A program made the position numbers and the translations under genes. DNA of 39,724 nucleotides from Candidatus Dormiibacterota bacterium. GTDB taxonomy: Bacteria; Chloroflexota; Dormibacteria; Aeolococcales; Aeolococcaceae. The DNA lies in contig PLXL01000110.1 of assembly GCA_003153215.1 (NCBI GenBank), positions 4,571 through 44,294 of the forward strand, read 5' to 3'. Positions 18,344-39,724 of the stretch are shown here, piece by piece. Below the pieces are notes generated by a model, which searched no databases, was not told the origin of the DNA, and saw only the letters and a list, made by a program, of their open reading frames with translations. Every line of letters starts with the position of its first letter. Within the stretch, counting starts at the first letter, position 1.

Positions 18344-18531
18344 GTGCTCGTCCGCTTGACCACGGGCTTGTAGATCAGCACCCGGATGATGATGAGCACG
18401 ATGACGGCACCGAGTCGGAGCTCCATCAGACCCACGAGACGAAGGGCTGTCAACACGGTCAGCACCACCACGGCAGACGGCCCGCCCCTCGCGTCGTCCG
18501 CCGACGGCGATTCGCCGAGATCCTCGGTCAT
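18340..18531 (-). CDS. small single-pass membrane protein (63 aa)
   Basis: MTEDLGESPSADDARGGPSAVVVLTVLTALRLVGLMELRLGAVIVLIIIRVLIYKPVVKRTST. Its ATG overlaps the Lon-like stop (ATGA at 18528-18531) and its stop overlaps the next GTG. Confidence 0.5.
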   Translation of the reverse strand: MTEDLGESPSADDARGGPSAVVVLTVLTALRLVGLMELRLGAVIVLIIIRVLIYKPVVKRTST

Positions 18532-20750: not shown

Positions 20751-22310
20751 TCAGACCTTCCACTCGATCTCGAAGCGCCGCGGGTCGAAGCGGTTGCGGC
20801 CGTGGTTCGCGGCCCTGACGGTGACGTGGTCGATGAGGGCGTCGAGGATGCCCTGCTGCCGATCGACGCCGAGCTCGTCCCAGCGCGCCCTCAGTGCCGC
20901 GGCGTCGTCGATGCCGCGGAAGACGATCACCCGGTTGCCCCGGGCCAGCCGCCGGGCCAAGGCGTCGATCTCGGCACGGAGCGTCGAGCTGTTGCGCAGG
21001 TATTGCTCCCTGGTGATGGCGTCCTCCCGCCACAGGGCGTCGCTCTCCTCCCGTTTGGCCCGCTTGCGGGCGATTTCCTCGACGATCGCGGCCTGGGGGT
21101 CGCCCTGCTCCGGGTGGCGTAGCGCCTCCCAGACCGCCGGCGTGTCGAGGCGGGCCAGGACCTGGCCGACCACGTGGCCCTCCAAGTACTCGGCCAGGAT
21201 GGCCACCCCGCCGCAGCCGCGGGCAACAGGGGGCTTGGCACAGATGTAGTTGCGCCGCTTATCCCCCTTGGGGCGGGCCACCAGGCCCTCCCGGCAGCGG
21301 TGGCAGCGGGCCCGGCCGCCGGTCAGCAGGTACCGGCGAGCGGGTTGGACGTTGAGCCGCCGGCGGCCCTCCACGAGGGTGCGAATCCGATCGCTCTGCT
21401 CGGGGGTGATGATGCCGGGCCATATCGCCAGGGCGACGTCATCGCCCTTGTAGTCCCTTCGGCCCGCAATCCGCCCACTCGTCAGCATGGTGCGCAGCAC
21501 GGTGGTCGACCAGGGGCCACCGTGCACGGTCGGAACGCCGCTGTCGATGAGCCACAGACAGAGAGAGCGGAGGCTCTCCCCGGCATCCGCGCGGTCGGCG
21601 AGGGTGCGGATGACCGCCGCCTCCTCCTCGCGAATGGTCACCTTGTCGCTCTCGTAGCCGAATGGGCGACCACCGCCACCACCGAGAAGCCCCTGCTCCG
21701 CGTAGTCGCGCGCCGCCCGGGTCGCGCGCATGGAGAGCACGCGGCTTTCGTAGCGGCCGTTGCTCACCGCGTCGCGGAACCATTTCTCCCCCTCGGGGGT
21801 GGAGAGGTCGGCGGGAAGCCCGGTATGGGGAATCAGGAGGACGTGGTGCTTGACGAAGAGGTCGATCAGGTCTTCGCCCTCGTGCCCGTCGCGGCAGAGC
21901 CGGTCAGGTCTCCAGAGCACAAGGTTGCGGATGTGCCCCGCCTCGATGTCAGCCCACAGCCGTTTGAAGTCTTGGCGGCGCTCCCGCCGCGGGTTCGGCC
22001 GAAACGCCGAGACGTCGTCGTCCTGGTACTCGTCGTAGGCGCGCAGCCCCATGCGGGCGATGACCTCGCGGCCGTCGCGGAGTTGACGATCCACCCCGCG
22101 CCGCCGGCTGCCCGGGTCGTCGGAGATCCGCGCGTAGTTGGCGGTGTCGCCGGGGCCGGCGCCTCCACCAGACCGCGGGGTAGGCAGGTACGACGTCCGC
22201 TCGAGCCAGCCGGTCGGGCTCTCCGCTGGCCAGAGCGCGCCGCTCTTCAGCTCGGCGATCAGTCCGGGCCCCGTCGGGTGTTCCCAGGGCCTGAATCGGG
22301 GCTCGGTCAC
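20751..22310 (-). CDS. large serine recombinase (phage-type serine integrase)
   Basis: Resolvase catalytic N-domain YARISDDPGSRRRGVDRQLRDGRE; recombinase domain; Cys-rich zinc ribbon CHRCREGLV...YICAKPPVARGC; C-terminal coiled coil. The GTG start overlaps the upstream stop. Confidence 0.9.
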   Translation of the reverse strand: MTEPRFRPWEHPTGPGLIAELKSGALWPAESPTGWLERTSYLPTPRSGGGAGPGDTANYARISDDPGSRRRGVDRQLRDGREVIARMGLRAYDEYQDDDVSAFRPNPRRERRQDFKRLWADIEAGHIRNLVLWRPDRLCRDGHEGEDLIDLFVKHHVLLIPHTGLPADLSTPEGEKWFRDAVSNGRYESRVLSMRATRAARDYAEQGLLGGGGGRPFGYESDKVTIREEEAAVIRTLADRADAGESLRSLCLWLIDSGVPTVHGGPWSTTVLRTMLTSGRIAGRRDYKGDDVALAIWPGIITPEQSDRIRTLVEGRRRLNVQPARRYLLTGGRARCHRCREGLVARPKGDKRRNYICAKPPVARGCGGVAILAEYLEGHVVGQVLARLDTPAVWEALRHPEQGDPQAAIVEEIARKRAKREESDALWREDAITREQYLRNSSTLRAEIDALARRLARGNRVIVFRGIDDAAALRARWDELGVDRQQGILDALIDHVTVRAANHGRNRFDPRRFEIEWKV

Positions 22311-23120: not shown

Positions 23121-23640
23121 GAGGCACCCTCCGGCGGCCCGTCGGGCGGGTCCGTGCGCTCCTCGGCTCGACGCAACCGGTCCCCGAGGTGGATCAGCTC
23201 CCGCTCGGTGGCCTCCGGGGGATCCCCGCCGAAATGGGCGTAAGCGCGCCGTTCCATGTCCCTGGCCACCGCCCGCTCGGCTCGCACCGTGGCCACGTCC
23301 TCGGCCATGGCGGCGTCCCATAGCAACTTCCCCACCCGGCGTAGCTCGAAGCCGGTCCTCTGGATCGCCCGCGCCAGCTCGTCGTTCGGGGACTCACGGC
23401 GGCGGCTCATGAGACGCCCTCCGGCGGCTCGTCGGGCGGGTCGGTGAACTCCTCGGCTCGGCGCAGCCGGTCCCCCAGGTGGATCAGCTCCAGCTCGATG
23501 TCCTTCGGGGGATCGCCCTCGAAGTGGGAGTAGGCGCGCCGGACCATGTCCCTGGCCACTGCCCGCTGGGCCCGCACCGTGGTCATTCCCCCGGCCGGGG
23601 CGGCGTCCCAGGCCAGCCTCACCGCCCGGCGCAGGGTGGG
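23090..23640. repeat. about 290-bp tandem duplication (two units) spanning the 3' end of the recombinase gene and the next ORF
   Basis: ggcggctcatgaggcaccctccggcggcccgtcgggcggg...ggatcagctc (from 23111) recurs as ggcggctcatgagacgccctccggcggctcgtcgggcggg...ggatcagctc (from 23401). The period is 290 nt and identity is high by eye. Confidence 0.8.
23117..23410 (-). CDS. 97-aa ORF duplicating the extreme C-terminal tail of the 677-aa recombinase
   Basis: ...WDAAMAEDVATVRAERAVARDMERRAYAHFGGDPPEATERELIHLGDRLRRAEERTDPPDGPPEGAS aligns with ...WDAAPAGGMTTVRAQRAVARDMVRRAYSHFEGDPPKDIELELIHLGDRLRRAEEFTDPPDEPPEGVS. ATGA overlaps at both ends. Confidence 0.5.
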   Translation of the reverse strand: MSRRRESPNDELARAIQRTGFELRRVGKLLWDAAMAEDVATVRAERAVARDMERRAYAHFGGDPPEATERELIHLGDRLRRAEERTDPPDGPPEGAS

Positions 23641-25440
23641 CATGGTGTCGCTCCGCTCGAACTCGAGGCGGATCGCCCCCTGGTCCAGGGCGTGCTGGGC
23701 GCGCACCGAGACGAGATCGACCTCCTCGTCGGTGGTGCCCACGTAGTCCTCCAGGAATGTCGCCACCGTGACCCCGAGGGCGGCCGCCGCCGCCGGGATC
23801 TTGGTCGGGTCCACCTGACACAGGAGGGTGGCGCGCAGGTGGCGCAGGGCATGCGTGCGTGAGAGGACGAGCGACCGCTCCCCGAAGCCGGCCCGCAGGG
23901 TGGCCCGGGACAGCGCCTGGTTGAGGTCCTCGTCATCCCAGGGCTTGCCGTTGGGTTTCGGCAGCAGGGGGGCCACCGGCCCCGCATCGGGGGCGAGCAA
24001 CCCCTGCTCCCGCGACGCCGCGAAGGCTTCGATGGCGGCGTCGCGCAGGTACTCCCAGACCGCCCAGGCGCGCTGGGAGAGGGCAATGGAGACCGGCTTC
24101 CCCCCGCTCTTCCTGGCCGCCGGGGTGCCGTCGTCGTCCTGGCGGATCACCGTGACCCAGCCCGCCGGCTGGTCCGGATCATCCCCGGTGTAGGCGGGGT
24201 TGGCCTCACCGTCGAGGACGGTCTGGCCGAGGATCTCCCCAACCCTGCAGCCCAGGTATGCGGTGAGGTCCAGCGCTGCCCGCATCACCGGGGCCTCGAA
24301 GATGATGCCATGGGCGCGGAGGTGAGCCCACTCAGCGGCGGTGTACCAGTCCCAAGCGCGCCCAGCCCGGCGCCGCATCCGGCGGGGCAGGCTGGCCACC
24401 ACGAAGGGCGCCACCTGGCCCTTGGCGACGGCGACCACGTAGCCCCTTCCCTGCTTCTCCGCCGTGAGCTTCTTCTCCCGTATGCGGCGGCAGACAGTCA
24501 CCTCATCGATGCCGAGGACCAGCGCGGTCTGGGCCACGTTGAGCTCCAGTTCATCGTCCCCCACGACCATCTCGACCGCTTTGTAGTCGTGCGGAACCAC
24601 CTCGTCGTTCAATGGGTTCTCGCTGCCCGGCGGCAGCAACTTCTCTTTGAGGGCGTACTTGAAGAAGTGGCCCAAGACGGTGATGTAGCCCGTCTGCGTG
24701 GCGGCGCCCTTACCGGCGAAGGGAAGGTGACGCAGCGCGAAATTGATCAGCTCGACGCAGAACCGGAAGAGGGGGTACTCCCCCAGCGGCCGGCCGTCGG
24801 GGCCGGGGATCGAGAAGAACTGGACGAGCTTGCGGATGACCTCGTGGACCGCGGGCTCGTCGCGGTAGGCCCCGGCCGAGCGGTGTCCCCGCGGCTTGGG
24901 GGTCACACGCAGGTACTCCGCGAAACCATCCAGGTGGGAGCTCGCCGGGCGCAGGGCCCCGGGGGTCTCGTAGAGGCGGATCTTCGCCACCAGGCCGCGC
25001 GCCTTGTCAAGGTCGCTGCCGCAGGACATCTGGCGGTGGGCAAACTCGTCGGGGTGGTCATCGAAGACCTGCCGGGAGACGTCGACATAGTAGAGGGGAC
25101 CGACGCCGTACTTCCATTCGCCCTCTCCCCTGCAGACCGTCGGCCTGACATGCACGCCCTTGGGAAGGTTCTTCTCGAACACGCCGTAGAACTCGTCGAG
25201 ACGGGGCGGGGAGAGCAGTTGCGAGTAGCGCGCCCGGCGGCGGCGCTCGCGGCGGTTCCGGGCCTTCTGGAGACGGACGGGGAACGGCAGGACGTTCTTC
25301 GCGGGAGCGGGGTCCACCTCCACCTCCGGGTCCGGCTGCTGCGGGAGGGTGTGGCGGTCGAGGCTCATGACCCGGACCCCGGGACGCCGCCGGAGGCGGC
25401 CGGCGGGCAGGTAGACGCGGCGAGAGAGCAGCGCGTCCAT
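23407..25440 (-). CDS. large tyrosine recombinase / integrase with an embedded MerR/excisionase-type HTH
   Basis: Catalytic elements: LGCRVGEILG (Arg), THALRHLRAT (HxxR) and FLEDYVG (Tyr). An internal HTH-like stretch reads LNVAQTALVLGIDEVTVCRRIREKKL. 677 aa, with an alternative start at Met 25368. Confidence 0.8.
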   Translation of the reverse strand: MDALLSRRVYLPAGRLRRRPGVRVMSLDRHTLPQQPDPEVEVDPAPAKNVLPFPVRLQKARNRRERRRRARYSQLLSPPRLDEFYGVFEKNLPKGVHVRPTVCRGEGEWKYGVGPLYYVDVSRQVFDDHPDEFAHRQMSCGSDLDKARGLVAKIRLYETPGALRPASSHLDGFAEYLRVTPKPRGHRSAGAYRDEPAVHEVIRKLVQFFSIPGPDGRPLGEYPLFRFCVELINFALRHLPFAGKGAATQTGYITVLGHFFKYALKEKLLPPGSENPLNDEVVPHDYKAVEMVVGDDELELNVAQTALVLGIDEVTVCRRIREKKLTAEKQGRGYVVAVAKGQVAPFVVASLPRRMRRRAGRAWDWYTAAEWAHLRAHGIIFEAPVMRAALDLTAYLGCRVGEILGQTVLDGEANPAYTGDDPDQPAGWVTVIRQDDDGTPAARKSGGKPVSIALSQRAWAVWEYLRDAAIEAFAASREQGLLAPDAGPVAPLLPKPNGKPWDDEDLNQALSRATLRAGFGERSLVLSRTHALRHLRATLLCQVDPTKIPAAAAALGVTVATFLEDYVGTTDEEVDLVSVRAQHALDQGAIRLEFERSDTMPTLRRAVRLAWDAAPAGGMTTVRAQRAVARDMVRRAYSHFEGDPPKDIELELIHLGDRLRRAEEFTDPPDEPPEGVS

Positions 25441-25441
25441 C

Positions 25442-25816
25442 TCAGTGCCCCCCGGGGTGCGGGGGGCAGCGCCGGCAGCGGCTGGCCCTGGCCCTCCAGC
25501 TCTCGAGCTGGCGAGGTCGCCGCGGGGTGGTGCTGGTCGGTGATGCTGCCGGTGCTGGTGGTCGGGCTGCTGGCGGCAAGGGACGCACCGAGGCGTGGGG
25601 AGCCGGCGGACGGCTGGGCGGGGCCACCGAGCCCTGGACCCGCCGCGCCTGCACCCAGACTCGGATAGAGGCGACCTCCACCCGATACCTCGGATCCCGG
25701 ATGTAGCTCAGCTCCGACCGATGGCACATCGAATATACGTGGGCCGCGGATACCCCCATCGCGCGTGCCGTCTGAGCCACCGACCAGTACAGCGCCTGCC
25801 CCTGCCAGTCGTCCAC
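25442..25816 (-). CDS. excisionase/AlpA-like HTH DNA-binding protein
   Basis: HTH_17-like YWSVAQTARAMGVSAAHVYSMCHRSELSYIRDPRYRVEVASIRVW. GTG at 25816 is preceded by GGAGG at a 6-nt spacing. The track ORF extends to 25912, but those codons are low-GC3. Confidence 0.6.
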   Translation of the reverse strand: MDDWQGQALYWSVAQTARAMGVSAAHVYSMCHRSELSYIRDPRYRVEVASIRVWVQARRVQGSVAPPSRPPAPHASVRPLPPAARPPAPAASPTSTTPRRPRQLESWRARASRCRRCPPHPGGH

Positions 25817-25952
25817 CCACCGCCTCCGTCCGGCCGGGTGGCCAAGTGCCGTCCCGCACCGAAGTTGCCTCTTGAACCTTTCTATGGGGTAGGATAGCAC
25901 CAACACGAACATCCGTGCTGGGCCCGGCTGACGGTCCGGCTACACTTATGGG

Positions 25953-26618
25953 GTGACCGACGAGATGTCCAGGCCGCAGCGCCCGCGGGGGCGTCCTCGG
26001 GGCAGCGACACCCGCGAGCGCTTGCTCAAGTTGGTCTCCGACGAGTACCTCAGGACGGGCATTTATCCGGTCCGCGACGGCCTGTCCCGATCCTTGGGGA
26101 TCTCGCCCCAGGCGGTGAGCGGCCACATCACCCGGCTGATCAGGGCCGGGCTGCTCCCCGAGGACGCCAACGCCCGGGACTGGAGCATCCGGCTGCGCGG
26201 CGCGAGCGTCCGCATCCCGGTCCTGGGTCGGAGCGCCGCCGGCCCGCCCACCCTGGCCACCCCCGAGCAGGAGCCGCTCGATCTTTTTGCTCTGCTGACT
26301 CGCAACCACCCCGGATGTTGGGCCGTTGAGGCGAACGGTGACAGCCTTGACGGGCCGCCATTTTGGATCCAGCCCGGTGCTTACTGCATCTGCAGGCCGA
26401 CGCCCGAAGCGAGCGAGGGCGAGATTGCCCTCTGCCGCCTGCTCGATGCCGAAACGGGCGAACCCACCGTAACGCTCAAACAGATCCTCCACGACCCGGA
26501 CGGCCGGCTCGTCCTCCACCCCCTCAACCCCCAGGCCGAGGACATCCACCCCGACCCCGAGCAGCGCCTGGACATTCTCGGGGTTGTTGTTGCGGTCGTC
26601 CGGCAACTGCCCCGCTGA
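25953..26618 (+). CDS. LexA/CI-like repressor (winged-helix DNA-binding domain + S24 self-cleaving peptidase domain)
   Basis: N-terminal LexA-type wHTH (LSRSLGISPQAVSGHITRLIRAGLL); candidate Ala-Gly cleavage site in IPVLGRSAAGPP; S24 Ser in ANGDSLDG and Lys in VTLKQI. Alternative ATG at 25965. Divergent from the Xis-like gene. Confidence 0.8.
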   Translation: MTDEMSRPQRPRGRPRGSDTRERLLKLVSDEYLRTGIYPVRDGLSRSLGISPQAVSGHITRLIRAGLLPEDANARDWSIRLRGASVRIPVLGRSAAGPPTLATPEQEPLDLFALLTRNHPGCWAVEANGDSLDGPPFWIQPGAYCICRPTPEASEGEIALCRLLDAETGEPTVTLKQILHDPDGRLVLHPLNPQAEDIHPDPEQRLDILGVVVAVVRQLPR

Positions 26619-26986
26619 GCCGTTCGCGGCCATGCTGACCACCGCGGTGATGATCATGTCGATCACCGCGCTGATGCCGGCGGTGATGCTCACCGTCATC
26701 ACCGTGCCGCTGACCGCGGTGCCGTCCCCCGCCCCCGTGCCGCCCTCGGACCTCCCGCCCCTCCCCCGTCCTGCGATCTCTTCTGCGATTTCGGGGGTCC
26801 CCGCCGTATTCAGCCTGATCTCAGCCGCCCCAGATGCACGCCTCAGAAAGCTATGAGGGGCCTGAATTGCCGCGGGGGTCGCTGGAGTCAACCGTTCAAA
26901 ATCACTGTCAACCGGTGAAAAGAGCCCTCTCTGCGATCTTTCTGCGGCCCCTCGGGACAGCATGAGCGGGGTCGTCACCACCGCCG

Positions 26987-27310
26987 TCATCCGGCCATCC
27001 TCCTCGCGACGACCAGCGCCCGCGGCCGGTTGGACGCCCTTCCCGCCAGGTCACGACGAACCATCGACGGCTCATCGACCGGCGCTACCAGAAACGACTC
27101 GACGCCCCATTCCGCCATCGGGCCGAGCAGGGCGGTGATCCGGCGCACCACCGCGGGGTCGGTGATGGGAGGCGGCGGGGCGAGCGCCACCAGCGGCTGC
27201 CCTGCGACCGATGACTGACGCGCGCAACCGCCGGGCTGCGTGGCCACAGACATCGGGTCCAGTCTGTCCAGGGCGCGCGTTGTCATACCATCTCCCGTGT
27301 CGCTTTGCAC
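26987..27310 (-). CDS. hypothetical protein (107 aa)
   Basis: A sampled 60-nt window has codon-position GC of about 70/45/80 percent in this frame, typical of real high-GC coding. No motif recognised. AT-richer non-coding DNA lies on both sides. Confidence 0.45.
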   Translation of the reverse strand: MQSDTGDGMTTRALDRLDPMSVATQPGGCARQSSVAGQPLVALAPPPPITDPAVVRRITALLGPMAEWGVESFLVAPVDEPSMVRRDLAGRASNRPRALVVARRMAG

Positions 27311-30060: not shown

Positions 30061-30576
30061 TCAGAGGGCCTGGTACACGTCGCGGGTGACCCCGACGCCG
30101 TTACGGGCGTAAGTGTTACCCGATGTCGTTGTTCCCGTTCGGGTCGCCGCATCTTCGCCGGGTACTCGCGGGACGGGGAGCGTAGCTTTGACTGCAGCCT
30201 GCTGACCGGGGTCCAGGGTGCGCTCGAACGTCTCGCTATACGTCAGAACGGAGTGGAACTCGTACCCGCTGACGGAGGCGGTTGTTGGGAGGGATCCGGT
30301 TCGTCCATCAACGAGTTGCCCCCCGGCGGTCGCCACGTAGCGAAGGCGCAGCTTCCATTCATATGTCGAGCGATCAATGAATCCGTACGAGACCGCCCCC
30401 AGATAGCCGTCCTTCAACAGCAAGGCCGCCTCCTCGACGTAGTTGTCGATGTCAGCCAAAGGGGGCTCGCCGTACAGGCCGTTCAGTTGGCGCAGGTCGG
30501 CACCAATCTTGCTCGCGATGTAGCGTGCTTCGGTGATCGTGAAAGTGGTGGTCCGTGTGCCTATGTCTGCCATCAT
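30061..30576 (-). CDS. 171-aa protein, candidate bacterial HORMA (Cap7-like)
   Basis: Only the last 171 aa of the 512-aa track ORF are protein-like (MMADIGTRTTTFTITEARYIASKIGADLRQLNGLYGEPPLADIDNYVEEAALLLKDGY...). It has an ATGA overlap with the CD-NTase stop. Size and position (between CD-NTase and TRIP13-like ATPase) fit HORMA; the fold itself is not verifiable by eye. Confidence 0.45.
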   Translation of the reverse strand: MMADIGTRTTTFTITEARYIASKIGADLRQLNGLYGEPPLADIDNYVEEAALLLKDGYLGAVSYGFIDRSTYEWKLRLRYVATAGGQLVDGRTGSLPTTASVSGYEFHSVLTYSETFERTLDPGQQAAVKATLPVPRVPGEDAATRTGTTTSGNTYARNGVGVTRDVYQAL

Positions 30577-31580
30577 GCCCCCTCGAATCCAGGCCCGAAC
30601 ACCTCGCGCCAGGCATCGTTGGCGTCCCCCTTCGTGGGCGCCTGGATGCCCCAGACGACCGTCTCCAGGGCGGCCGTTGCCGCCGTCACGAGTCGCTGAC
30701 GGTCGGCTTCCTTGTAGGTACGAGCGACATTGTTGGCCGGATTGACAGGATCCCAGACCTGAATAGCGTCCGTCGACGCCGCCACCGCGCTGGCGGTGTA
30801 GAAGTCGGTGAACACGATCGGCGTCCGCAACCCGGTGCGGGAGATGAACGACAGCACCTGCTCGAAGGCCCGCGGGTAGTTGTGGACCGCGAGCGCCTCG
30901 CCGTTCCAGCCCTTGTCCCACAGGTGCGCCACGATCAATTCGACGAGGAAGCTCTTGCAGCGGAGCTGGTCGTCGACCCGCTTGGCCTCCCGCACCCAGG
31001 CCTTGAGCAGCCGGATCAACTCCCGGTACTCCGGTCCCGCCGCCTCCCGCCGCGTCCGCATGAAGCGGAGGTGCAGGGTCACCGACGTGAGCACCCGGTC
31101 CCCCTGGCGCGTGATCAGGTACCCACGGTCGTCCGGCTCGCCGGTGTACAGCACCGGCGCGACGTCGATCTTGAGCCCCGACCCCCGCAGGGTGATGCCC
31201 ACGGCGTGGTCTGAGATGACGAAGTCCTCGGCCTCCTTGGTGTCGCCGTACACCTCCCTGCACCGATCGCAGAGCCAGTCGAGGAGCCCGCTCTCCCCGG
31301 CGTCGACGCCCCCGACATTGGAGGCCCGCACGTAAGCGGCGACGTCGGCATCGGAGCCCTCGCGACGACGGCGCTGGATCGCCGTGTGCTTGGCGGTGCT
31401 GCCGGAGGCGCGGAGCTTGACCAGGTCGTAGGCTGGGTGGGCACCGATGTGGGCTTCGAGCCGCTCCCGAAGGTGGTTCACCTGGGCCCGCCGCCTTGCC
31501 GCCGCCTCCGAGGAGATGTTGACCTTGGAGGCGGCGTAGGCGGCCAGGACGGTGTGGGTGACGTGGTTGGCCGGCATCAA
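30573..31580 (-). CDS. cdn: CD-NTase (cGAS/DncV-like SMODS nucleotidyltransferase)
   Basis: Pol-beta NTase triad: GS in LRASGSTAKHT, DxD in EGSDADVAAYV, third Asp in GLKIDVAPV. C-terminal helical KSFLVELIVAHLW is typical of CD-NTases. The likely ATG at 31577 shares 1 nt with the upstream stop. Confidence 0.8.
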   Translation of the reverse strand: MMPANHVTHTVLAAYAASKVNISSEAAARRRAQVNHLRERLEAHIGAHPAYDLVKLRASGSTAKHTAIQRRRREGSDADVAAYVRASNVGGVDAGESGLLDWLCDRCREVYGDTKEAEDFVISDHAVGITLRGSGLKIDVAPVLYTGEPDDRGYLITRQGDRVLTSVTLHLRFMRTRREAAGPEYRELIRLLKAWVREAKRVDDQLRCKSFLVELIVAHLWDKGWNGEALAVHNYPRAFEQVLSFISRTGLRTPIVFTDFYTASAVAASTDAIQVWDPVNPANNVARTYKEADRQRLVTAATAALETVVWGIQAPTKGDANDAWREVFGPGFEGA

Positions 31581-33607
31581 GAGTCCTCCCCAGCGGCAAT
31601 CGTCACCTCATCCACCACCGGCGACGCATCGGCGTCGGCCGAGGTTCCCTGCCGGTTGATGGCCACCCGCTTCCAATGGGCGACCTCCGTCCGGACCTCG
31701 TCTAGGTCGTCCATGATCTCCTGGGCGCTGGACATGGGCCAGCCACGCTCCTCGACCAGGAGCCCAGTGACCCCTAGCGGATCCTTGATCTCGTCGACCT
31801 CCTGGCGAAGGAACCGCGTCGCCTGAAGAACCTTCATCTCGTGTTGCTGAAGTGCCGTTTCGGGCGTCTCCCCGGGCGGAACGGGCATCGGCTCGGGCTC
31901 GTTCCGGTTCGGCACCAGGTCGCTCCGCAGCCGGTCATTGGTCAGCTCAGTGGGCAGCCCGTTACTCGCGAATACCACGTCGCCGCGGCCGTCGACCGAC
32001 CGGGGATTCAGGATGCCGGCGCGCGAATCCGCCACCACCCGGTAGAGCTGGTGAACCCCCCGCTCGGAGGCAAGCATGCCCAGGATGATCTGATCCACTC
32101 CGCGGCGGTCACTCTGCCCGTTGTCCAGGTGCTGGCTGTAATACAGGGTTCGCACAACCCCCTTGCTGACCAGCCAATAGGCGGCCAGGAGGGCCAGCTC
32201 GATGCCCGCCGGCGTGTAACCGGAATTGCGGACGCCCTGCAGGGCGAGATCTCGGAGAGCCTCGGGAGACCGCCCGGTGTACGCCCAACTGAACTTGATG
32301 ACCTTGCCGTACAGCTCCTGAAGATCCTTCCGTGCCACGTCAGCCCGGCCGCGGTGGAAGGTCGCCCGCGCTGGGCGCAGTGCCAGATCAGCACAGACCT
32401 CGGCCAGCTTGGGATCTCGGACCCGCTGCATCTCCCGGTCGACCCGACGCAACCCCCTGGATGCGGCCTTGCGCCGAGCCATCACAGTGTGCAGGAGCTC
32501 CACGCTGCGCTCGTCGAACGAGGATGGAAGCCCCATTGCCCGAGCATCGCTGGCCGTGAGGTTCCCCTGATACCAGGCCACCGCCGGCTCGCTGACCCCG
32601 TCATCACGCAACTCGAGCAGCATGGCATCAGCCTTGGCCTCGATCTCGCCGGCGTCGGTCCACTCCTTGGGGTGCGAGACGTGCTGCAGACCCAGGTAAC
32701 CCTGGATGGCACGCCGGAGATCCGGCCCAACGTGCCCAATGACCACCTGAGCGGGGACGACCAATGCCCTCACCTTCGGGGGCGCCTCCTCTGATCCGGC
32801 CTGGACGCGACGAAGAGCGGCCGCCAGTTCCCCGAGCAGCCCCAGCATGCGCCGAGGATCGCGGCCGAACTCGTAGGCCGCCTGGCTCGACTGGATGCCG
32901 AGCAGCTGGTGGCAACTGGCGGTCCGGCTCGATCCGTCAACCGTGGCCAGGATGGCCACCTCTGGTGAGCCGTTCTTGTGGCGCACCAGCATCGGGATGA
33001 CGGTGATCGGGACCAGGACACCATCGAGCTCGATGTCCTTCTCGTAGGAGTTGGTCGCGAGCAGGTTCACCTGGGAACGGTTGATGGTCTCCGCCATCGT
33101 CTCTGGGTCGGCTGCCTCGACCACCATCACACTGGCGCTGCCCGCCAGCGGCTGGGGTGGCAGCAGAGCGGTCGACCCCCCGTCCCCCTCGATGAGCAGG
33201 CGGCGCTCCGCACTGTCGCGGGGGTTGGCCGGGGACGGCGTCACCATGTGGGAGTAGAGGTCCACTCGGATGACCTCCAGAGCTGAACCGCCCATGACTC
33301 GGACCATCGCCGGTTCCTGTAGCTCGCGGCGGGCCTTTGCCGGATCCACGACGGCTCGGCTCAGAGCGCGCGCTACGGACTCGGGAAGACGCTTGGCGAG
33401 CTCCTCCTCGAGCCGTCGCACGGCCGCGCTCTTGGCCGGCTCCGGGACCGTGCCCGGTTCCGAGGGTTCATCGTCACGGTCCTCGCTGGCGTCCCGTGCC
33501 TTGACCACCGGGACCTCCTGCTCGCCGGGGTCGAAGGCGACCCCGTGCGTCGTCTCGGAGCGGGTCGACGAGTTGGTGTCCATCTGGGCGTCAGAGATAT
33601 CGGCCAT
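31577..33607 (-). CDS. 676-aa protein with a candidate ParB/Srx-like N-terminal domain and a long helical C-terminus
   Basis: PITVIPMLVRHKNGSPEVAILATVDGSSRTASCHQLLG resembles the ParB-N/DndB core (h-h-VR ... h-l-DGxxRxxA). The N-terminus is acidic and looks disordered. AGGAGG lies 9 nt upstream of the ATG. The stop overlaps the CD-NTase start. Confidence 0.6.
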   Translation of the reverse strand: MADISDAQMDTNSSTRSETTHGVAFDPGEQEVPVVKARDASEDRDDEPSEPGTVPEPAKSAAVRRLEEELAKRLPESVARALSRAVVDPAKARRELQEPAMVRVMGGSALEVIRVDLYSHMVTPSPANPRDSAERRLLIEGDGGSTALLPPQPLAGSASVMVVEAADPETMAETINRSQVNLLATNSYEKDIELDGVLVPITVIPMLVRHKNGSPEVAILATVDGSSRTASCHQLLGIQSSQAAYEFGRDPRRMLGLLGELAAALRRVQAGSEEAPPKVRALVVPAQVVIGHVGPDLRRAIQGYLGLQHVSHPKEWTDAGEIEAKADAMLLELRDDGVSEPAVAWYQGNLTASDARAMGLPSSFDERSVELLHTVMARRKAASRGLRRVDREMQRVRDPKLAEVCADLALRPARATFHRGRADVARKDLQELYGKVIKFSWAYTGRSPEALRDLALQGVRNSGYTPAGIELALLAAYWLVSKGVVRTLYYSQHLDNGQSDRRGVDQIILGMLASERGVHQLYRVVADSRAGILNPRSVDGRGDVVFASNGLPTELTNDRLRSDLVPNRNEPEPMPVPPGETPETALQQHEMKVLQATRFLRQEVDEIKDPLGVTGLLVEERGWPMSSAQEIMDDLDEVRTEVAHWKRVAINRQGTSADADASPVVDEVTIAAGEDS

Positions 33608-33927
33608 TTCAGGCCTCCTGGTGGATAGCCGCGGTCCATCTAGCTGGGCTGCGGGTTGCCACCCGTCGCGCCCCGACGCCCTCTCCGGTGACCGATTACC
33701 GGTGCAGAACGGCGGTCGGCTTACCTTCGGTCCCTCGCCGATCGGCTCTCACTCGGTGGCTTGGCCTGCTCACCGGGATCGCGGCCTCCCCTCGTCGGCG
33801 GCCGTAGCGGCCGGCGTGGGTCGGGGTTAGGAGCGTTGGAGCTTTCGCCCACTTAGCATAACACCTGCCCCCTCGGTGGCTCGGGTACGGCGACGGCCGA
33901 TCCGCCGGCGTCGTAAGGCCCATCCAT

Positions 33928-36900
33928 CTACGTCGGCGGGTCTTCAGGGGCGACGACCCTCTCGGCGTCGATGCGCCGGCGCGACCACTCGCTCGGGATT
34001 GGCAGGTTGGTGTTGACGATGAGCACCCCTACCAGAGAGGGGTACCTGGGGTCGGTCTTGCCATGCAGGCGCGGCTTCAGCCAGCCGATGTAGTTCTCGA
34101 TGACCCCCGGCGGCGCCTCCTTGCCGCCGTGGTCGAAGACGACGAGAACCGAGAGTTGACTTCCCCGCCCCACCCCGTACTGGGTAGGCTGGCCGAGATA
34201 GCGAGCGCAGTCATCGACAGCGACCGGATCGCCACGCGACACCTTGAGCTCGGCGATGACGTCGTCGTGAAGGAGGTCGTCGTACCCGCCCGCCACGGCA
34301 TCGCGCCGGGTCAGACGGCCCTCCAGTTCGGGGTCGGCACGGAGCAAGCGCTCCAGCTCGTTGTGAAACTGAGCCTCGGACACGTGCGTGCCTCGCATGA
34401 AGGTCTTCTCGAACATCATCACCTCGGCCGCCCGGACGCAGGCGGCGAAGAGCCGACAGAACGCCCGGGCATCCTCGGTATCGAACTCCGGCGGGTCGAG
34501 GACGGCGAACATGGCGAGGAGCCGAGCATCGGTCTGCTGGTGTTCGGTCAGATGATCACGACTGGGGTCGAACGGTCGCAGCCGAAGCCGCTTGAATCCC
34601 TCGACCTCGATCACTTGCTCCTGGCCGTTACCCATCAGCCGTGCCTGAACCGGGCAGTCCAGGGCGGGGCCGTGGATCGGCTGCTCGATCAAGCAGCGAA
34701 GAGGCTCCTCGTTGGCGACGGTGATGCCGAAGTCGTCGGTGGTTCCCTCGGCCAAGGCGAAGTCATACCGGGGGAGCGTGAGTGCGTCCCGTCCGAGCAT
34801 GGTCACCGGCTCGACGATGCACCTCTCCGCCCATGCTGGGGTGGAGAGGAGGCGAACGGTCATACCCAGGTGGTACAGCTCCCCACGTCGAAGGACAAGC
34901 ACGTCCGTCACCGGCACGCCTCCCAACGTGGCCACGCAAACCGCCCGAGGTGGCTCTTCCGAGTCGGGCGCCGGACTCTCCAGGTTCAGGCGACGGGGCC
35001 CGAGGCGGCTGCCGACGAGCGAGACGGGAGCCGGGATCGCGCCGAGCCCCTGCCACACCACTTGGGCCGCACTGGGGTCAGCGAGGCTGTCCACCGCCGC
35101 GAGGAAAGCGATGAGGCCATCGGGGATTGTTGCCTCCACAGCGCCGGACAACTCGGAACGAAGCACCTGGGCCTGCCGCTTGGCCCCCTGGAGGAGCGCT
35201 GGCGCCTGCTCGCCGACAGCCCGGACAGCGGCGTCGTAGCGAAGCAGCACGGCTGCGATCTGCCAGGCTCGAGCAAGCCATTGCCGCTGGCTCCCCGAGG
35301 CGTGCGCTTGCGGGAGGCCCAGAAGCTGTGTGGCAGCTTGATCAAGTTCCGCCGCCATGGCGGTCGGGTCGGGCGAGGCAGAGGCCAACAGCACGCGCGC
35401 CGCGCTCACCGACGCCAGTAGCCCGTCGAGAGTCGCACGAAGCTGGCCGCCTTTCGCCCCATCCGGGTGGGATGCTTCCACGCCGGACACGGCCGTCGTC
35501 ACGGCGTCGGTGAGCGTGATCACATCGGCAGCCCCAAGCGGCCCGTCGACCATCGCTGCGGCAAGCTCGGCACCCCGGGCGATAGTCCCAGCGAGCCGCC
35601 GACCGGGGCCCCCCTCATCGCCGGAAGGCTGGCCGGCCTCGATGCGCGCGGCCACAACGGCTGCATCAGCCCAACGCCCGGCGGACTGCAGGAGCTCGAC
35701 CGGTTCCAGCGCTCGCCACGAGTGCGCCGGCCCATGGACAGCGCTAAGCGGCTCGATCTCCGCCAATGGGGTGTCGGCTACGAGGCGCGGTTGGTCCATC
35801 AGCGCCTCGAAGAGGGGTTCCCGGCGCCGGTTGTAATAGTCCGCCAACTCCGGGCTCGCGGCCGTGGCGACGGCGGCCTTCGCCCAGGCGGCGTCGGTAG
35901 ACAGTTCTTCCGGCCACCACGCCGTGAGCAAGTCCTCGCGGGCGGACGGCCGACAGTAGCCGACGTGGGCCAGGGCAATCCTGAACCACTCAACCATCTC
36001 CGCTCCAGCGCTGAGGGTGCGGGCGAGGGACCGCAGCGCCCAGAGGGCCGACTCCATCACGTCGGGATCCGGGTTCTGTGCGTAGGTGACGATCCACGCG
36101 TGGATGAGCGGGAGCAGCCGTGGCCCCAGGTCCGCTGGAAGCCGGAGCCGAGGGAGCCGCTCCAGCATCCGCTGGTGGACGACGACGTAAGGGTCTTGGA
36201 CAAGTGCGACCGACAGCTCCGTCAGCTCGAAAGGCAGGGGGTCGGCGACGTCGGCACACGCCACCCATAGGTCGATGCCGCAGCTCCGAACGACATGATC
36301 TCGGTCGAGGAGGGCGCTGTAGGTGGTCGGGAGAATATCCCTCAAAGTCTCCGATGAGACCGCCGCCTCAAGGGCCTTGAGCATCGTCGTCCGAACGGTC
36401 CGGTCGTGGCGATCATTGCCCGTCGTTGCCGAGAAGAGAAGTTGAATCGGCCCGATCACGCCTACTGGGTTGACGGAGGCACAGCCCCCAACCGTTCGGG
36501 CGAGACGCCGCCGGCGGGCGTCACGTCTTATCCGCACGGTCTCCCGCTCCAGGGCCACTTGCACCGGAGAGGCATCTGCCCCAGTCGGAAGCGCCGGCGC
36601 GTCCCGGTCCGGGGCACAAAGCGTGAGGATGGTCCCAAGCATCTCGTCGGCGTGCGCGGCCACGGCCCCTGGCACATGGCGGACGAGGCCTTCCAGATGA
36701 TCGGCGGCGTGATCGGCCGCCTCGTCCCCCCAGTCGCCGGCAGCCCGTCGCACCACGAAACTGATGGCCTCCGACGTTGCGGCGAAACCCGCATCCCACG
36801 GCTCCCGGAACCGCTGAAGGAACCACGGCACCCGGGAAAGCTCGTCCTTCGCCTCCTGGCCAGCCCGAGCCGCTTCGGACTCGATGATCCCCCTGGTCAG

Positions 36901-38007
36901 ATGGGGCTCGCCACGCCAGCCTTCCGCCAAAGCTCGCAGAGCCGCTGAAGTTGGATGGGGATAGCCGAAGTACGTCTGTTCAGCCCCGCGCACGCTGGTG
37001 GCCAGCGGGGGCCCCAGAGCGACGATCCGCTTGGGGTCGACCGCCAGCAACGCCCGGGCTGCATCGGCAGCGGCTTGCCGCCTGCGCTCGTCATCGCTGC
37101 GTAGTTGGTCGATGATCCGCTCGGTCACTGCGGGCAGATCGACGCGCGACGCTGCGATGAGACCCTCCGGCAAGGACGGCGTTTGCCGCAGACCAACCTG
37201 CTCTTCCGACGCCAATGCGATGAGCTGGTCTAGGACGTCGGGCAGGTCGGCGGGTATCAGCTCGGGCTCCAGCACCGCCAACAACGTGCCGGCGTCCACG
37301 GACCGGAGGCGAGTTAGGACGGCAAGTGCAGCGACGAGCGCTCGGCGAGGATGGCAGTTCCCGGAGCGGACGAGCGCCTCCAATGCTTGGAAGGCGGTCG
37401 CATCGGCGGCGTCCTGGGCCAGTTCCAGCAGGCTGTCCACCAGGACGGGGAGGAACAGCTCGGGTGCGTTCCTCGCCGCATCAAGAACCTCGCGGGCAGC
37501 GCGCTGATCCTCGAGCGTAAGCGGTTCTGTCCGCGGCTCAGCACGGTCGATCCGGTCAATTGCACTGCCAAGATCCCCGACGACGTAGCCCTCGCCAGCC
37601 AGAAGGTGGTGGCGTCGGTCACGGCGTTCGGTGTGGCGGCGGGTGCGCTCGCCGGCAGCTCGCCGTCCAGCCTCCTTCCGGGTCGCCTCCTCGACAGCGC
37701 GTTGCCCCGCCACGGTTGCCAGGTTGGGCAGCTCACCGGTCCCCTTCCGATGCGGGCAAGCCGGACAGTTCGCCCCGTAGAACTCGAGGGCCAGATCCAG
37801 CGCCTGGTGCCCCTGGGTCCGTGGCGGCGGCGCGTGCTCGCATCGAACTTCAAGGAGACCCATCGGCAGGCCGAGTGCCGATCCGACGAAGCTGTTACCG
37901 CCGACCGCCTCGATTCGGGCGTGCAGGCAGTGGCGTCGCGTCAGCTCGAGGGCTTCCGCGTTCGCCTGCCCCATCGCGACCGCCCGGTCGTACTCCTTCA
38001 TGGCCAT
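33928..38007 (-). CDS. 1359-aa protein: N-terminal Cys/His cluster, about 1000 aa of alpha-helical (HEAT/ARM-like) repeats, C-terminal PD-(D/E)xK nuclease-like module
   Basis: N-terminus: RHCLHARIE...RCEHAPP...ANCPACPHRKG. The long Leu/Ala-rich section looks helical. C-terminus: SEAQFHNELERLLRADPELEGRLTRRDAVAGGYDDLLHDDVIAELKVSRGDPVAVDDCARYLGQPTQYG (D...ExK...QxxY layout). The ORF is uninterrupted over 4 kb. Confidence 0.7.
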   Translation of the reverse strand: MAMKEYDRAVAMGQANAEALELTRRHCLHARIEAVGGNSFVGSALGLPMGLLEVRCEHAPPPRTQGHQALDLALEFYGANCPACPHRKGTGELPNLATVAGQRAVEEATRKEAGRRAAGERTRRHTERRDRRHHLLAGEGYVVGDLGSAIDRIDRAEPRTEPLTLEDQRAAREVLDAARNAPELFLPVLVDSLLELAQDAADATAFQALEALVRSGNCHPRRALVAALAVLTRLRSVDAGTLLAVLEPELIPADLPDVLDQLIALASEEQVGLRQTPSLPEGLIAASRVDLPAVTERIIDQLRSDDERRRQAAADAARALLAVDPKRIVALGPPLATSVRGAEQTYFGYPHPTSAALRALAEGWRGEPHLTRGIIESEAARAGQEAKDELSRVPWFLQRFREPWDAGFAATSEAISFVVRRAAGDWGDEAADHAADHLEGLVRHVPGAVAAHADEMLGTILTLCAPDRDAPALPTGADASPVQVALERETVRIRRDARRRRLARTVGGCASVNPVGVIGPIQLLFSATTGNDRHDRTVRTTMLKALEAAVSSETLRDILPTTYSALLDRDHVVRSCGIDLWVACADVADPLPFELTELSVALVQDPYVVVHQRMLERLPRLRLPADLGPRLLPLIHAWIVTYAQNPDPDVMESALWALRSLARTLSAGAEMVEWFRIALAHVGYCRPSAREDLLTAWWPEELSTDAAWAKAAVATAASPELADYYNRRREPLFEALMDQPRLVADTPLAEIEPLSAVHGPAHSWRALEPVELLQSAGRWADAAVVAARIEAGQPSGDEGGPGRRLAGTIARGAELAAAMVDGPLGAADVITLTDAVTTAVSGVEASHPDGAKGGQLRATLDGLLASVSAARVLLASASPDPTAMAAELDQAATQLLGLPQAHASGSQRQWLARAWQIAAVLLRYDAAVRAVGEQAPALLQGAKRQAQVLRSELSGAVEATIPDGLIAFLAAVDSLADPSAAQVVWQGLGAIPAPVSLVGSRLGPRRLNLESPAPDSEEPPRAVCVATLGGVPVTDVLVLRRGELYHLGMTVRLLSTPAWAERCIVEPVTMLGRDALTLPRYDFALAEGTTDDFGITVANEEPLRCLIEQPIHGPALDCPVQARLMGNGQEQVIEVEGFKRLRLRPFDPSRDHLTEHQQTDARLLAMFAVLDPPEFDTEDARAFCRLFAACVRAAEVMMFEKTFMRGTHVSEAQFHNELERLLRADPELEGRLTRRDAVAGGYDDLLHDDVIAELKVSRGDPVAVDDCARYLGQPTQYGVGRGSQLSVLVVFDHGGKEAPPGVIENYIGWLKPRLHGKTDPRYPSLVGVLIVNTNLPIPSEWSRRRIDAERVVAPEDPPT

Positions 38008-38047
38008 CTCACCGCCACTCTACCCGCCGGTCGCCGCAGGCCCCGCC

Positions 38048-39064
38048 TCAGCTGGCCAGGGCGACCTCGGGAGACGCCCACCCGGGCGAGGCGGGGTGAC
38101 GGACGGACTCCGCCGTCAGCATCGCGAGGGTGATGATCCGGGAGCCGGGGGGCATCGAAGACACGAGGGCCAAGGCCATGGAGCACAACTCCGCGATGAG
38201 TTTGGACCCAGGTGCATCGGCCCCCTCGTCGCGTGCCGACCGACGGATCCAGCGGAGGATCTGAGGCATTGAGTTCAGCATGGCGGCGGCCCGACGCATG
38301 TCTTCAGGCCGCGCGCGCTGAAGGTCCCGGAGCAGAAGGTTTGACCCGTCATCCGGTGCCAGTGCCGCCGCGCTGATGGACGTGGCGTCCACGATCTCGG
38401 TCGGGCCGGGCAGCCCAGCGGGCCTGCCGGCCGCCGCGGACCGCAGCCCGTCCAAGACCGCAGGGTGGGATCCGCGGAACATCCGGTCGACGACGGCTGC
38501 GCCGATGTCCACGGTGCGGGGATCCTTGAAGGCTGCCCCGAGGAGCTGCCGCTGGTCCGGGGTGAGGCCCGGGATCGACCCAGGGTCCAGGTCGGCAACC
38601 GCCCGGCCTACCTGACGCCGGATGCGCAGCGGAGTGCGGGCACTGGCCCTGCCCTCGGGCTCGAGCGCCATCTCGCGCCGAGCGGTGCTCGCCCTCTTGG
38701 CGCAGGCCGATGTGAGGTCCCTGACCAGACGCTCCTCGTTGCCGCCGTAGCCAGCAACCCAGAGAAGCAAGCGCAACTCCCTCACCTCGGTGACGCCGGC
38801 CTCGCGCAGCCGCAGAGCCGCGAGCAGCCGACGGTACGAGCCGAGAACAGGCCACTCGCCGTGCGCCCCGTGACGGCCCTGATGGACGGTGAGGGTGGGG
38901 CCGCTGATGACGCTGTTCTTGGAGCGCGTCCACTCATCGATGAGGGCGTCGGTGACCGTGGCGCGGTATCCGCGTCGGGCCGCCCAGGCCGCGGCGTGGG
39001 TGACGAGGCAGGAGCGGGAGATCAAGCCGTGGTGGCGGGAGGGGCAGTGGTTCGCGGTGATCAT
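38048..39064 (-). CDS. hypothetical protein (338 aa from Met 39064; the track ORF extends to 39124)
   Basis: An ORF 40 nt upstream of the 1359-aa gene on the same strand. No motif recognised. Confidence 0.55.
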   Translation of the reverse strand: MITANHCPSRHHGLISRSCLVTHAAAWAARRGYRATVTDALIDEWTRSKNSVISGPTLTVHQGRHGAHGEWPVLGSYRRLLAALRLREAGVTEVRELRLLLWVAGYGGNEERLVRDLTSACAKRASTARREMALEPEGRASARTPLRIRRQVGRAVADLDPGSIPGLTPDQRQLLGAAFKDPRTVDIGAAVVDRMFRGSHPAVLDGLRSAAAGRPAGLPGPTEIVDATSISAAALAPDDGSNLLLRDLQRARPEDMRRAAAMLNSMPQILRWIRRSARDEGADAPGSKLIAELCSMALALVSSMPPGSRIITLAMLTAESVRHPASPGWASPEVALAS

Positions 39065-39077
39065 GGCGGTCGGAACG

Positions 39078-39206
39078 TCAGTAGGCGAGGAGGGCCCCCG
39101 TGGCCACCAGGGCACCGGCGGCATTGATCCGGCTCGGGGCGTTCACGCAGCGGACCCACGCGACGAGGGCGGCGACCAAGCGAGCGAGGAAGTCGATGAT
39201 GGCCAT
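39078..39206 (-). CDS. 42-aa hydrophobic micro-protein
   Basis: Hand-translated as MAIIDFLARLVAALVAWVRCVNAPSRINAAGALVATGALLAY. AAGGAG lies upstream. It is below the ORF-track size cutoff. Confidence 0.35.
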   Translation of the reverse strand: MAIIDFLARLVAALVAWVRCVNAPSRINAAGALVATGALLAY

Positions 39207-39347
39207 TGGGGTGATTGCTCCTTGTGGTGTGGGCTGGATGCTCCTACTGATCCTGACGGCGATCGCCGAGCCGTTCCACCCCCATCCCGCCCGAGGTCCA
39301 GACGGATCGTGGCCCGACCGCCGCGCGGTCTACGTTCAACGCGCCGA

Positions 39348-39488
39348 CTACGACTTCGTCTTTGCGGCCCCGTGCGAGTTCCGGGGGGTGGACCGGTCGT
39401 GCCTCGGCACGTGAACCGTCTGACCGTCCACCACCCGGTCGTAGGGCTTCACTGGAACGATCTTCTTGCCCTTCTCGGTCTCTGCCAT
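39348..39488 (-). CDS. 46-aa basic micro-protein, first ORF of the operon
   Basis: Hand-translated as MAETEKGKKIVPVKPYDRVVDGQTVHVPRHDRSTPRNSHGAAKTKS. A strong RBS (AGGAGG) lies 7 nt upstream of the ATG, and a promoter-like element lies just upstream. Confidence 0.45.
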   Translation of the reverse strand: MAETEKGKKIVPVKPYDRVVDGQTVHVPRHDRSTPRNSHGAAKTKS

Positions 39489-39527
39489 CCTCGCGCCCTC
39501 CTAGTTGACCTCATGGGTTAGCCATTC

Positions 39528-39557
39528 AGCATACCCCATATATCGTATGCCGTGCAA
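39528..39557 (-). promoter_or_regulatory. sigma-70-like promoter candidate for the micro-ORF / 338-aa / 1359-aa operon
   Basis: The minus strand reads TTGCAC (39557-39552) - 18 nt - TATGCT (39533-39528), about 40 nt upstream of the RBS and ATG at 39488. A 6-nt inverted repeat GCATAC...GTATGC (39529-39550) overlaps the spacer and -10. Confidence 0.4.
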
Positions 39558-39724
39558 CCGTTCGGCACCGTATCTGGGGACAAATAGCTCACTAAGGCTG
39601 TCCGCGTCATGTGATCGGTGCGCTCCAGGGAGCTGCTCGCACGGCGCCCCTCCTTGTTCGCGGCCGGCTCTGCGTCAAGGGACATCCCCCAACACTCGGG
39701 TGGGCGACGCTGATCTCGCTGGAG

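Follow-up and report, generated by a model that had tools for sequence, protein, structure and literature searches.

The window, a 39,724-nucleotide (nt) stretch of the Candidatus Dormiibacterota contig PLXL01000110.1, carries a 1359-amino-acid (aa) open reading frame (ORF; 33928-38007, minus strand) which, judged from profile matches and from its relatives, is a fused and highly divergent Olokun-like nuclease with the OloA and OloB parts in one chain. A first-pass annotation of this DNA had placed the ORF at the end of a four-gene operon, behind two micro-ORFs and a 338-aa ORF, and had recognised none of the four products as a named family. The four ORFs were found at the places given there, all on the minus strand, with the large ORF uninterrupted and 40 nt separating the 338-aa stop codon from the 1359-aa start codon. 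The large protein matches the PADLOC model of OloA, and what had been proposed as a novel family joins two components of the described Olokun system. On sequence grounds, all four ORFs are conserved coding genes, and they are separate units, not one system.

Olokun is said to have been described as an anti-phage system by Millman et al. in 2022, and is reportedly defined by its anti-phage activity; the Millman preprint contains neither the name Olokun nor the word adaptin. It is listed among anti-phage systems (PMC13223576). The OloA model of PADLOC matched the window protein over aa 69-438 (expectation value [E] 2.6e-7, 28 bits). Among fused relatives, OloA was matched by 32 of 36 (best E 6e-17) and OloB by 5 of 36. 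The stand-alone N-part proteins all matched OloA (13/13, best E 1.2e-41), and the stand-alone C-part proteins matched OloB in 12 of 13 cases (best E 2.7e-13). Both models were found in the single chain of fused member P0202, OloA over aa 16-680 (E 1e-17, and to 1e-18 among fused members) and OloB over aa 885-1272 (E 2e-28), and the OloB profile positions 10-455 were matched by aa 850-1279 of P0196 (E 5e-24). The OloA matches were collinear across profile positions 10-506 and extended to residue ~16-21 in divergent members, and OloB started at residue ~850-885 in divergent fused members. The sole other PADLOC family matched was the nuclease end of one LmuA model. The adaptin-like helical repeat of an OloA-type component was indicated by the direct PADLOC match and by the relatives. 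An OloB-type component was indicated through the relatives, and AlphaFold2 (AF2) modelling showed a helical domain followed by a nuclease. The D...ExK active site was present, with D1244, E1253 and K1255 invariant in 50 relatives. Where Olokun has two adjacent genes, the window has a single 1359-aa ORF, and split pairs exist in the same clade. Because the two-gene arrangement is missing here, the protein was filed as a fused variant and not as a canonical Olokun member.

The relatives of the large protein were compared for their forms. In a database search, 73 relatives were found, most of them full-length (41-86% identity) and all unnamed; the sources that bore a name were Actinomycetota (Solirubrobacterales, Rugosimonospora, Catenulispora and Trebonia). 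A profile built on aa 165-1359 was searched against 1.84 billion cluster representatives and found 965 of them, 285 with E<=1e-30; the family is large and comes mainly from Actinomycetota. The best 150 of the 965 representatives were sorted by form with local hidden Markov models, giving 39 complete fused proteins (~1270-1500 aa), 13 complete N-part-only proteins (836-864 aa), 14 complete C-part-only proteins (478-547 aa) and 84 fragments or others. Family members are either single proteins of ~1350 aa or pairs of ~850 and ~495 aa whose genes are translationally coupled, the division falling at window residue ~860. In one fetched locus (L044; the fetched loci are numbered with L), genes for 856 and 505 aa overlap as TGATG, and the 505-aa protein aligned end to end with window aa 860-1359 (33% identity, E 4e-71). 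A second split pair, with a 4-nt overlap, was found in L045. Since L044 and L045 hold genuine gene pairs, the comparison indicates that the window gene is a fusion, or that the split pairs arose by fission, with the joint at residue ~860. An origin of the split forms as assembly artefacts was also considered and was rejected, given their consistent lengths in 13 and 14 independent clusters and the overlap of stop and start codons in two loci. The joining of the end of an OloA-like solenoid to the OloB helical domain would resemble a Rosetta-stone fusion of interacting partners.

The OloA-like part (aa 1-859; 35431-38007, minus strand) consists of a Cys cluster, a basic linker and an adaptin/HEAT-like helical-repeat solenoid. 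In addition to the PADLOC match, a PDB profile search with the large protein gave weak or marginal matches to HEAT and armadillo repeat proteins only, and no match was obtained in Pfam, NCBIfam or PHROGs. The Leu/Ala-rich character noted in the first pass was borne out (15.3% Ala and 12.1% Leu), and the modelled part was helical. The N-terminal Cys/His cluster that had also been noted is a putative metal-binding site of the Cys4(His) type (HCLH...RCEH...NCPACPH, aa 26-87; 37747-37932, minus strand). Its C27, C56, C81 and C84 were invariant in 36 fused homologues, where H26, H29 and H58 were at least 90% conserved, and the same four cysteines were invariant in 13 split N-terminal homologues. 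The OloB-like part (aa 860-1359; 33931-35430, minus strand) comprises a helical domain (~860-990), a beta-sandwich (~1020-1150) and the nuclease (~1150-1345). An AF2 model of aa 860-1359 (predicted local distance difference test [pLDDT] 76.6) showed the helical domain, an immunoglobulin (Ig)-like beta-sandwich and the nuclease in this order. A Foldseek search with this 500-aa model mainly returned Ig-like sandwiches and a HEAT-repeat subunit of Integrator and gave no nuclease in the top 50, so the nuclease domain was modelled alone.

The nuclease domain (aa 1150-1345; 33973-34560, minus strand) was predicted with a pLDDT of 93.8 and the order alpha-alpha-alpha-beta-beta-beta-alpha-beta-alpha-beta. 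The catalytic motif D1244...E1253-x-K1255 (34243-34278, minus strand) was placed with D1244 just before or at the start of strand beta-2 (model residues 96-98) and with E1253 and K1255 in beta-3 (101-108), and the Q1273-x3-Y1277 motif (34177-34191, minus strand) fell in the helix after the catalytic strands (123-131). The model therefore predicts the alpha-beta-beta-beta-alpha-beta core of a PD-(D/E)xK nuclease, with the acidic and Lys residues at strands 2 and 3. When 50 diverse relatives, both fused and split, were aligned, no positions of the last 210 residues were invariant except E1211, G1241, D1244, E1253, K1255, Q1273, Y1277, D1292 and P1338, and the GGYDDLLHDDVIAELK...QxxxY stretch was the best-conserved region of the whole protein. 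The C-terminal nuclease pattern of the first-pass annotation was thus recovered, and its proposal of a PD-(D/E)xK module ending the large protein is supported by the invariant residues together with the predicted fold. Because the catalytic residues are invariant, the nuclease does not look like a remnant. The best PDB match of the nuclease model was the repair nuclease NucS (2vld), and it was weak (E 0.019, probability 0.54). Other weak PDB matches were also PD-(D/E)xK folds, namely Vsr-like 3hrl, I-Bth0305I, McrC, BstYI, OkrAI and Mus81. A viral structure library gave weak matches down to E 6e-3, to YqaJ, PD-(D/E)XK nuclease, Vsr, DUF559 and Mrr-like proteins. A sequence and profile search of the PDB found nothing for the nuclease part. 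The C-terminus of the PADLOC LmuA model PDLC03853 matched the nuclease, in the window fragment with E 5e-5 and in split relatives to E 2.6e-21.

The large gene is probably transcribed from a -10-like promoter of its own, just upstream of its start codon. A -10-like hexamer, TAGAGT (38017-38022, minus strand), lies 9 nt before the ATG and is a putative promoter for a near-leaderless mRNA. The arrangement TAGAGT-N9-ATG at the start of the large gene is common to the window and L010, and TGTACT-N6-GTG stands directly before the large gene in L001, L008, L009, L011 and L012 despite unrelated upstream genes. This shared motif looks like the -10 element of a leaderless or near-leaderless mRNA, and suggests that the starts called at ATG in L001 and L011 should be moved to the upstream GTG. 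The good promoter that the first-pass annotation had placed before the micro-ORFs was not recovered. A consensus scan of 33400-39724 found no sigma-70-type promoter (0 sites) and no intrinsic terminator, a hairpin scan was also empty, and TTGCAC-N18-TATGCT appears a plausible promoter by eye only. Apart from the close relative L010, no neighbour was common to the ~35 large-gene loci. The lack of a shared neighbour, together with the conserved -10-like motif at the start, argues that the large gene is autonomous. As conserved partners, the L005 helicase and the small genes that lie downstream in L001, L005 and L007 were considered and rejected, each being confined to its own locus.

The genomic surroundings were compared in the window and in the relatives. 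In the window, housekeeping genes of acyl-CoA metabolism at 1-11 kb are followed by an island with a type I restriction-modification (R-M) system of low guanine-cytosine (GC) content, an AAA ATPase, a serine recombinase, several ORFs without a Pfam match, and a type III CBASS (cyclic-oligonucleotide-based anti-phage signalling system) composed of CD-NTase, HORMA, TRIP13 and a SAVED-nuclease. The defence-island location claimed in the first pass thus holds, with the type III CBASS, the type I R-M and the serine recombinase all present. The neighbours of the homologues include genes of restriction and abortive infection (Eco57I, type I R-M with Abi_C, MmeI, AbiEii), of toxin-antitoxin systems (HigB, PIN/Phd, ParE) and of mobility (integrases, transposases, conjugation genes), as well as further genes associated with defence (nSTAND/EACC1, Trypco/trypsin, ThsB_TIR, KAP NTPase, Schlafen). 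This listing of neighbour families fits a horizontally mobile defence gene. In the respects that could tell against a defence role, the homologues kept the catalytic residues, their contexts were those of defence and mobile genes, and no known non-defence family was matched, in agreement with the first-pass annotation.

How such a protein may work can be considered in the light of the published system. The Olokun of Pseudomonas forms a ~278 kDa 2:2 complex according to mass photometry and AlphaFold3, in which the two PD-(D/E)xK domains are predicted to be adjacent, and in vitro it degraded DNA of T7, SECphi17 and SPO1, whereas neither genomic DNA of E. coli nor plasmid DNA was degraded (bioRxiv 10.1101/2025.07.10.664194). 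We consider it likely that the 1359-aa protein is an autonomous, single-chain Olokun-like nuclease, probably dimeric, whose PD-(D/E)xK effector cleaves invading DNA under the control of the solenoid and the Cys cluster. By analogy, the fused protein would probably dimerise, with its two nuclease domains side by side; the solenoid and the Cys cluster would serve as a regulatory or sensing scaffold; and infection would lead to cleavage of phage DNA by the protein. The proposal joins the homology, architecture and conservation found here to a dimerisation, a trigger and an anti-phage role that are carried over from published Olokun.

Several observations weigh against this proposal. The OloA match of the window protein is weak (28 bits), the protein gave no direct OloB match in PADLOC, the link to OloB being transitive through its relatives, and in all of the Olokun comparisons the experimentally validated OloA and OloB are represented by the PADLOC models. 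A protein search with an alignment of the split C-parts found 15 close relatives, and canonical OloB was not among them. Helical-repeat proteins can moreover yield spurious cross-matches; this is argued against here because the OloA and OloB matches are paired and collinear. No Foldseek match to the nuclease model reached E<=0.001 in the PDB or the viral library. Some neighbours of the homologues are housekeeping genes (DnaB, ribosomal protein L9, DNA ligase), and some fused-gene copies are frameshifted (L032, L038 and L043). As for autonomy, read-through from the 338-aa gene into the large gene may occur here, where the gap is 40 nt and no terminator was detected.

The contexts of the relatives also bear on a different role, in which the protein is related to Olokun by descent yet serves the mobile element that carries it, in competition, addiction or exclusion, by cutting DNA of plasmids or of integrative and conjugative elements. 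Many copies have integrases, serine recombinases, transposases and conjugation genes as neighbours; L009 has TraG-like and relaxase genes, L008 and L045 have integrases, and L007 has insertion sequence (IS) elements. Moreover, Olokun nicks plasmid DNA in vitro (10.1101/2025.07.10.664194). On the other hand, defence systems generally ride mobile elements, so that the context does not discriminate between the two roles. Olokun itself is, as noted above, reportedly defined by anti-phage activity. Service to the carrier element is regarded as unlikely.

The conserved cysteines allow a more specific idea, namely that the Cys4(His) cluster is a metal or iron-sulfur/redox sensor which detects infection and licenses the nuclease. 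Separately, the three small upstream ORFs might form a new mobile module, regulatory or anti-defence in function, that targets neighbouring defence genes, an idea raised because they matched no known family and because the first of them has phage relatives. We give this pair of ideas only a small chance of being right. If the sensor reading were true, the single-chain form would be a minimal and tractable model for the Olokun trigger.

The three upstream ORFs are, by comparison of their neighbourhoods, an independent conserved cassette that abuts the large gene in this lineage only. The first cassette gene is a Lys/Arg-rich 46-aa ORF (39348-39488, minus strand) whose ATG is preceded at 7 nt by an AGGAGG ribosome-binding site. 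It is followed by a hydrophobic 42-aa ORF (39078-39206, minus strand), which has AAGGAG before its ATG and lies 13 nt upstream of the 338-aa gene (38048-39064, minus strand). The longest frame of the latter would encode 358 aa (38048-39124, minus strand); the 338-aa form, starting at the second ATG at 39064, was preferred because its length matches the homologues and it avoids overlap with the 42-aa ORF. No function could be assigned to the 338-aa protein by library search: it matched nothing in Pfam, NCBIfam, PADLOC, PHROGs, the PDB or phage genomes, and 7 homologues only were found. The 46-aa ORF matched phrog_21154 (E 4e-9) and shares 60% identity over 35 aa with 42-aa hypothetical proteins of two Marinitoga camini viruses (Thermotogae), indicating from these matches that it belongs to a small-protein family present in phages. 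The viral copies, such as the one at 2983-3111 of Marinitoga camini virus 2 (L046), adjoin RecT/YqaJ recombination genes.

By tblastn over ~45 loci, the products of the three ORFs were found only in L010 and in L014-L018. L014-L018 carry the three cassette ORFs in the order and spacing of the window, followed not by the large gene but by a reverse-strand gene and GerE regulators. At the nucleotide level, the window and L014 are homologous from the 46-aa ORF through the stop codon of the 338-aa gene, and the homology ends exactly there. The 46-aa ORF is 78% identical in L014-L018, and the 42-aa ORF is 80-83% identical in L010 and L014-L018 at the same 13-nt spacing. Most differences in the cassette ORFs lie at third codon positions, and the micro-ORFs of the first-pass annotation are real genes, with 78-83% protein identity in other contigs. 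In the five metagenome contigs of L014-L018 (e.g. L014 2795-5715), the cassette stands directly downstream of an IS110-family transposase, and in L016-L018 the 338-aa gene is frameshifted, appearing as two tblastn segments in different frames.

These neighbourhoods bear directly on the four-gene operon, in which the micro-ORFs and the 338-aa and 1359-aa proteins would make one novel defence or conflict system, the small proteins regulating or partnering the nuclease. All four genes are on the same strand, the 40-nt gap holds no terminator-like hairpin, and L010, the closest relative, keeps the 42-aa gene and a 341-aa gene upstream of its large gene. Yet the co-occurrence check was negative in both directions: the cassette occurs without the large gene in L014-L018, where homology stops at the 338-aa stop codon, and ~35 other large-gene loci have no homologue of any of the three ORFs. 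In L010 itself the 46-aa ORF is missing and the junction before the large gene differs, being 250 nt long and unalignable, and the L010 proteins have diverged unequally (94% identity for the 338-aa protein and 86% for the large one). In addition, the large gene has its own -10-like element, common to homologues with unrelated upstream genes. Because the three ORFs recur together elsewhere without the large gene, they are read as a separate cassette. The operon is largely refuted by the gene-neighbourhood comparison, and we hold it to be improbable. A housekeeping scaffold-nuclease of DNA repair or recombination, or an inactive remnant, located in the island by coincidence, is very improbable, in that the DnaB, L9 and DNA ligase neighbours, the weak structural similarity to NucS and the decay of some copies stand against a patchy distribution, variable and island-like neighbourhoods, library matches to families of defence components only, no Pfam or NCBIfam housekeeping model, and invariant catalytic residues.

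Some further observations were made on the family and on the island. Frameshifts, fragmentation or truncation affect the fused-gene copies in L032, L038, L043 and L036, which come from metagenome-assembled genomes of Chloroflexi, Mycobacterium sp., Solirubrobacterales and Actinomycetota; such decay fits turnover of defence genes, but may also reflect errors in the assemblies. In L005 (5152-8004) and L006 (109-2961), a gene for a 950-aa DEAD/ResIII helicase shares 4 nt with the start of the Olokun-like gene. No fused branch is more divergent than this one (P0069, 41% identity), and the helicase is absent from all other loci, so L005 and L006 may hold a helicase-plus-fused-Olokun variant. Among the neighbours of fused Olokun-like genes in L021/L023-type loci, counted per family, were a 5-hmdU DNA kinase helical domain with MazG_C (DNA hypermodification) and two ThsB-like TIR proteins.

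At 20751-22310 (minus strand), 18528-20315 (minus strand) and 23407-26990, the island of the window holds a large serine recombinase with Resolvase, Recombinase and Zn_ribbon_recom domains, an AAA ATPase, and several ORFs 541-677 aa in length. The 541-aa and 677-aa ORFs gave no match in Pfam, PADLOC or NCBIfam and may be further cargo genes. A 676-aa ORF (31577-33607, minus strand) has a stop codon that overlaps the start of the CD-NTase ORF (30573-31580; SMODS and OAS1_C) at the head of the CBASS III operon. It had no match in Pfam, PADLOC, NCBIfam, PHROGs or the PDB and no homologue in the fetched loci, and may be an undescribed CBASS-associated gene. The hsdR gene (11564-14664, minus strand) is split into ORFs of 722 and 311 aa by a single base missing around 12496-12510, inside the conserved ...LNTLFVDKRL/RNHGLIQAFSRTNR... 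stretch, which points to a frameshifted pseudogene or else to an error of sequencing. The GC content of the R-M block (12-18 kb) is 57-61%, below the 64-73% found on both sides, and a recent acquisition is suggested.

In the literature searched, no description was found of the fused architecture, of this poorly scoring and mostly actinobacterial clade, or of the invariant Cys4 cluster. The Olokun family itself is already known. The fusion supports the published Olokun complex, and one polypeptide should be easier to handle in structural and biochemical work than a two-gene system. An annotation gap is likely, because the OloA model gives the window protein a score of only 28 bits and the OloB model gives none, and rule-based tools that require both genes will probably miss this clade. 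The invariant Cys4 cluster is a conserved feature newly pointed out here, and the operon proposed earlier is corrected, its small ORFs being assigned to a separate cassette.

Compared with known systems, the large protein is closest in plan to Olokun. The module order is the same, an adaptin-like helical-repeat OloA followed by an OloB that begins with a helical domain and ends in a PD-(D/E)xK nuclease, and the sizes are similar (~139 kDa per OloA and OloB pair, and roughly 147 kDa estimated for 1359 aa). A further likeness is that the window protein contains no Walker A motif, no NTPase component having been found for it, and that it lies in a defence island. It differs from canonical Olokun in being one polypeptide instead of two genes, in the length of its OloA-like part (~850 aa, whereas the OloA model has 596 positions), and in its very divergent sequence within a high-GC genome. 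Its OloB-like part carries a beta-sandwich between the helical domain and the nuclease, which may be a further difference from canonical OloB. The unnamed split pairs of ~850 and ~495 aa (L044 and L045) have the same Cys cluster and nuclease motifs and are collinear with the window protein over its full length, but they consist of two coupled genes where the window has one continuous ORF. With the PD-(D/E)xK superfamily (NucS/EndoMS 2vld, Vsr-like, YqaJ and Cas4-type nucleases), the window nuclease shares the core order, the D at beta-2, the ExK on beta-3 and the QxxxY helix; it matched no Pfam nuclease family, however, and appears to be a distinct, divergent branch. With Lamassu LmuA of the PDLC03853 subtype, only the effector nuclease is shared, namely the C-terminal ~135-160 residues of the model, whereas the rest of LmuA is unmatched and no SMC-like LmuB partner accompanies the window protein.

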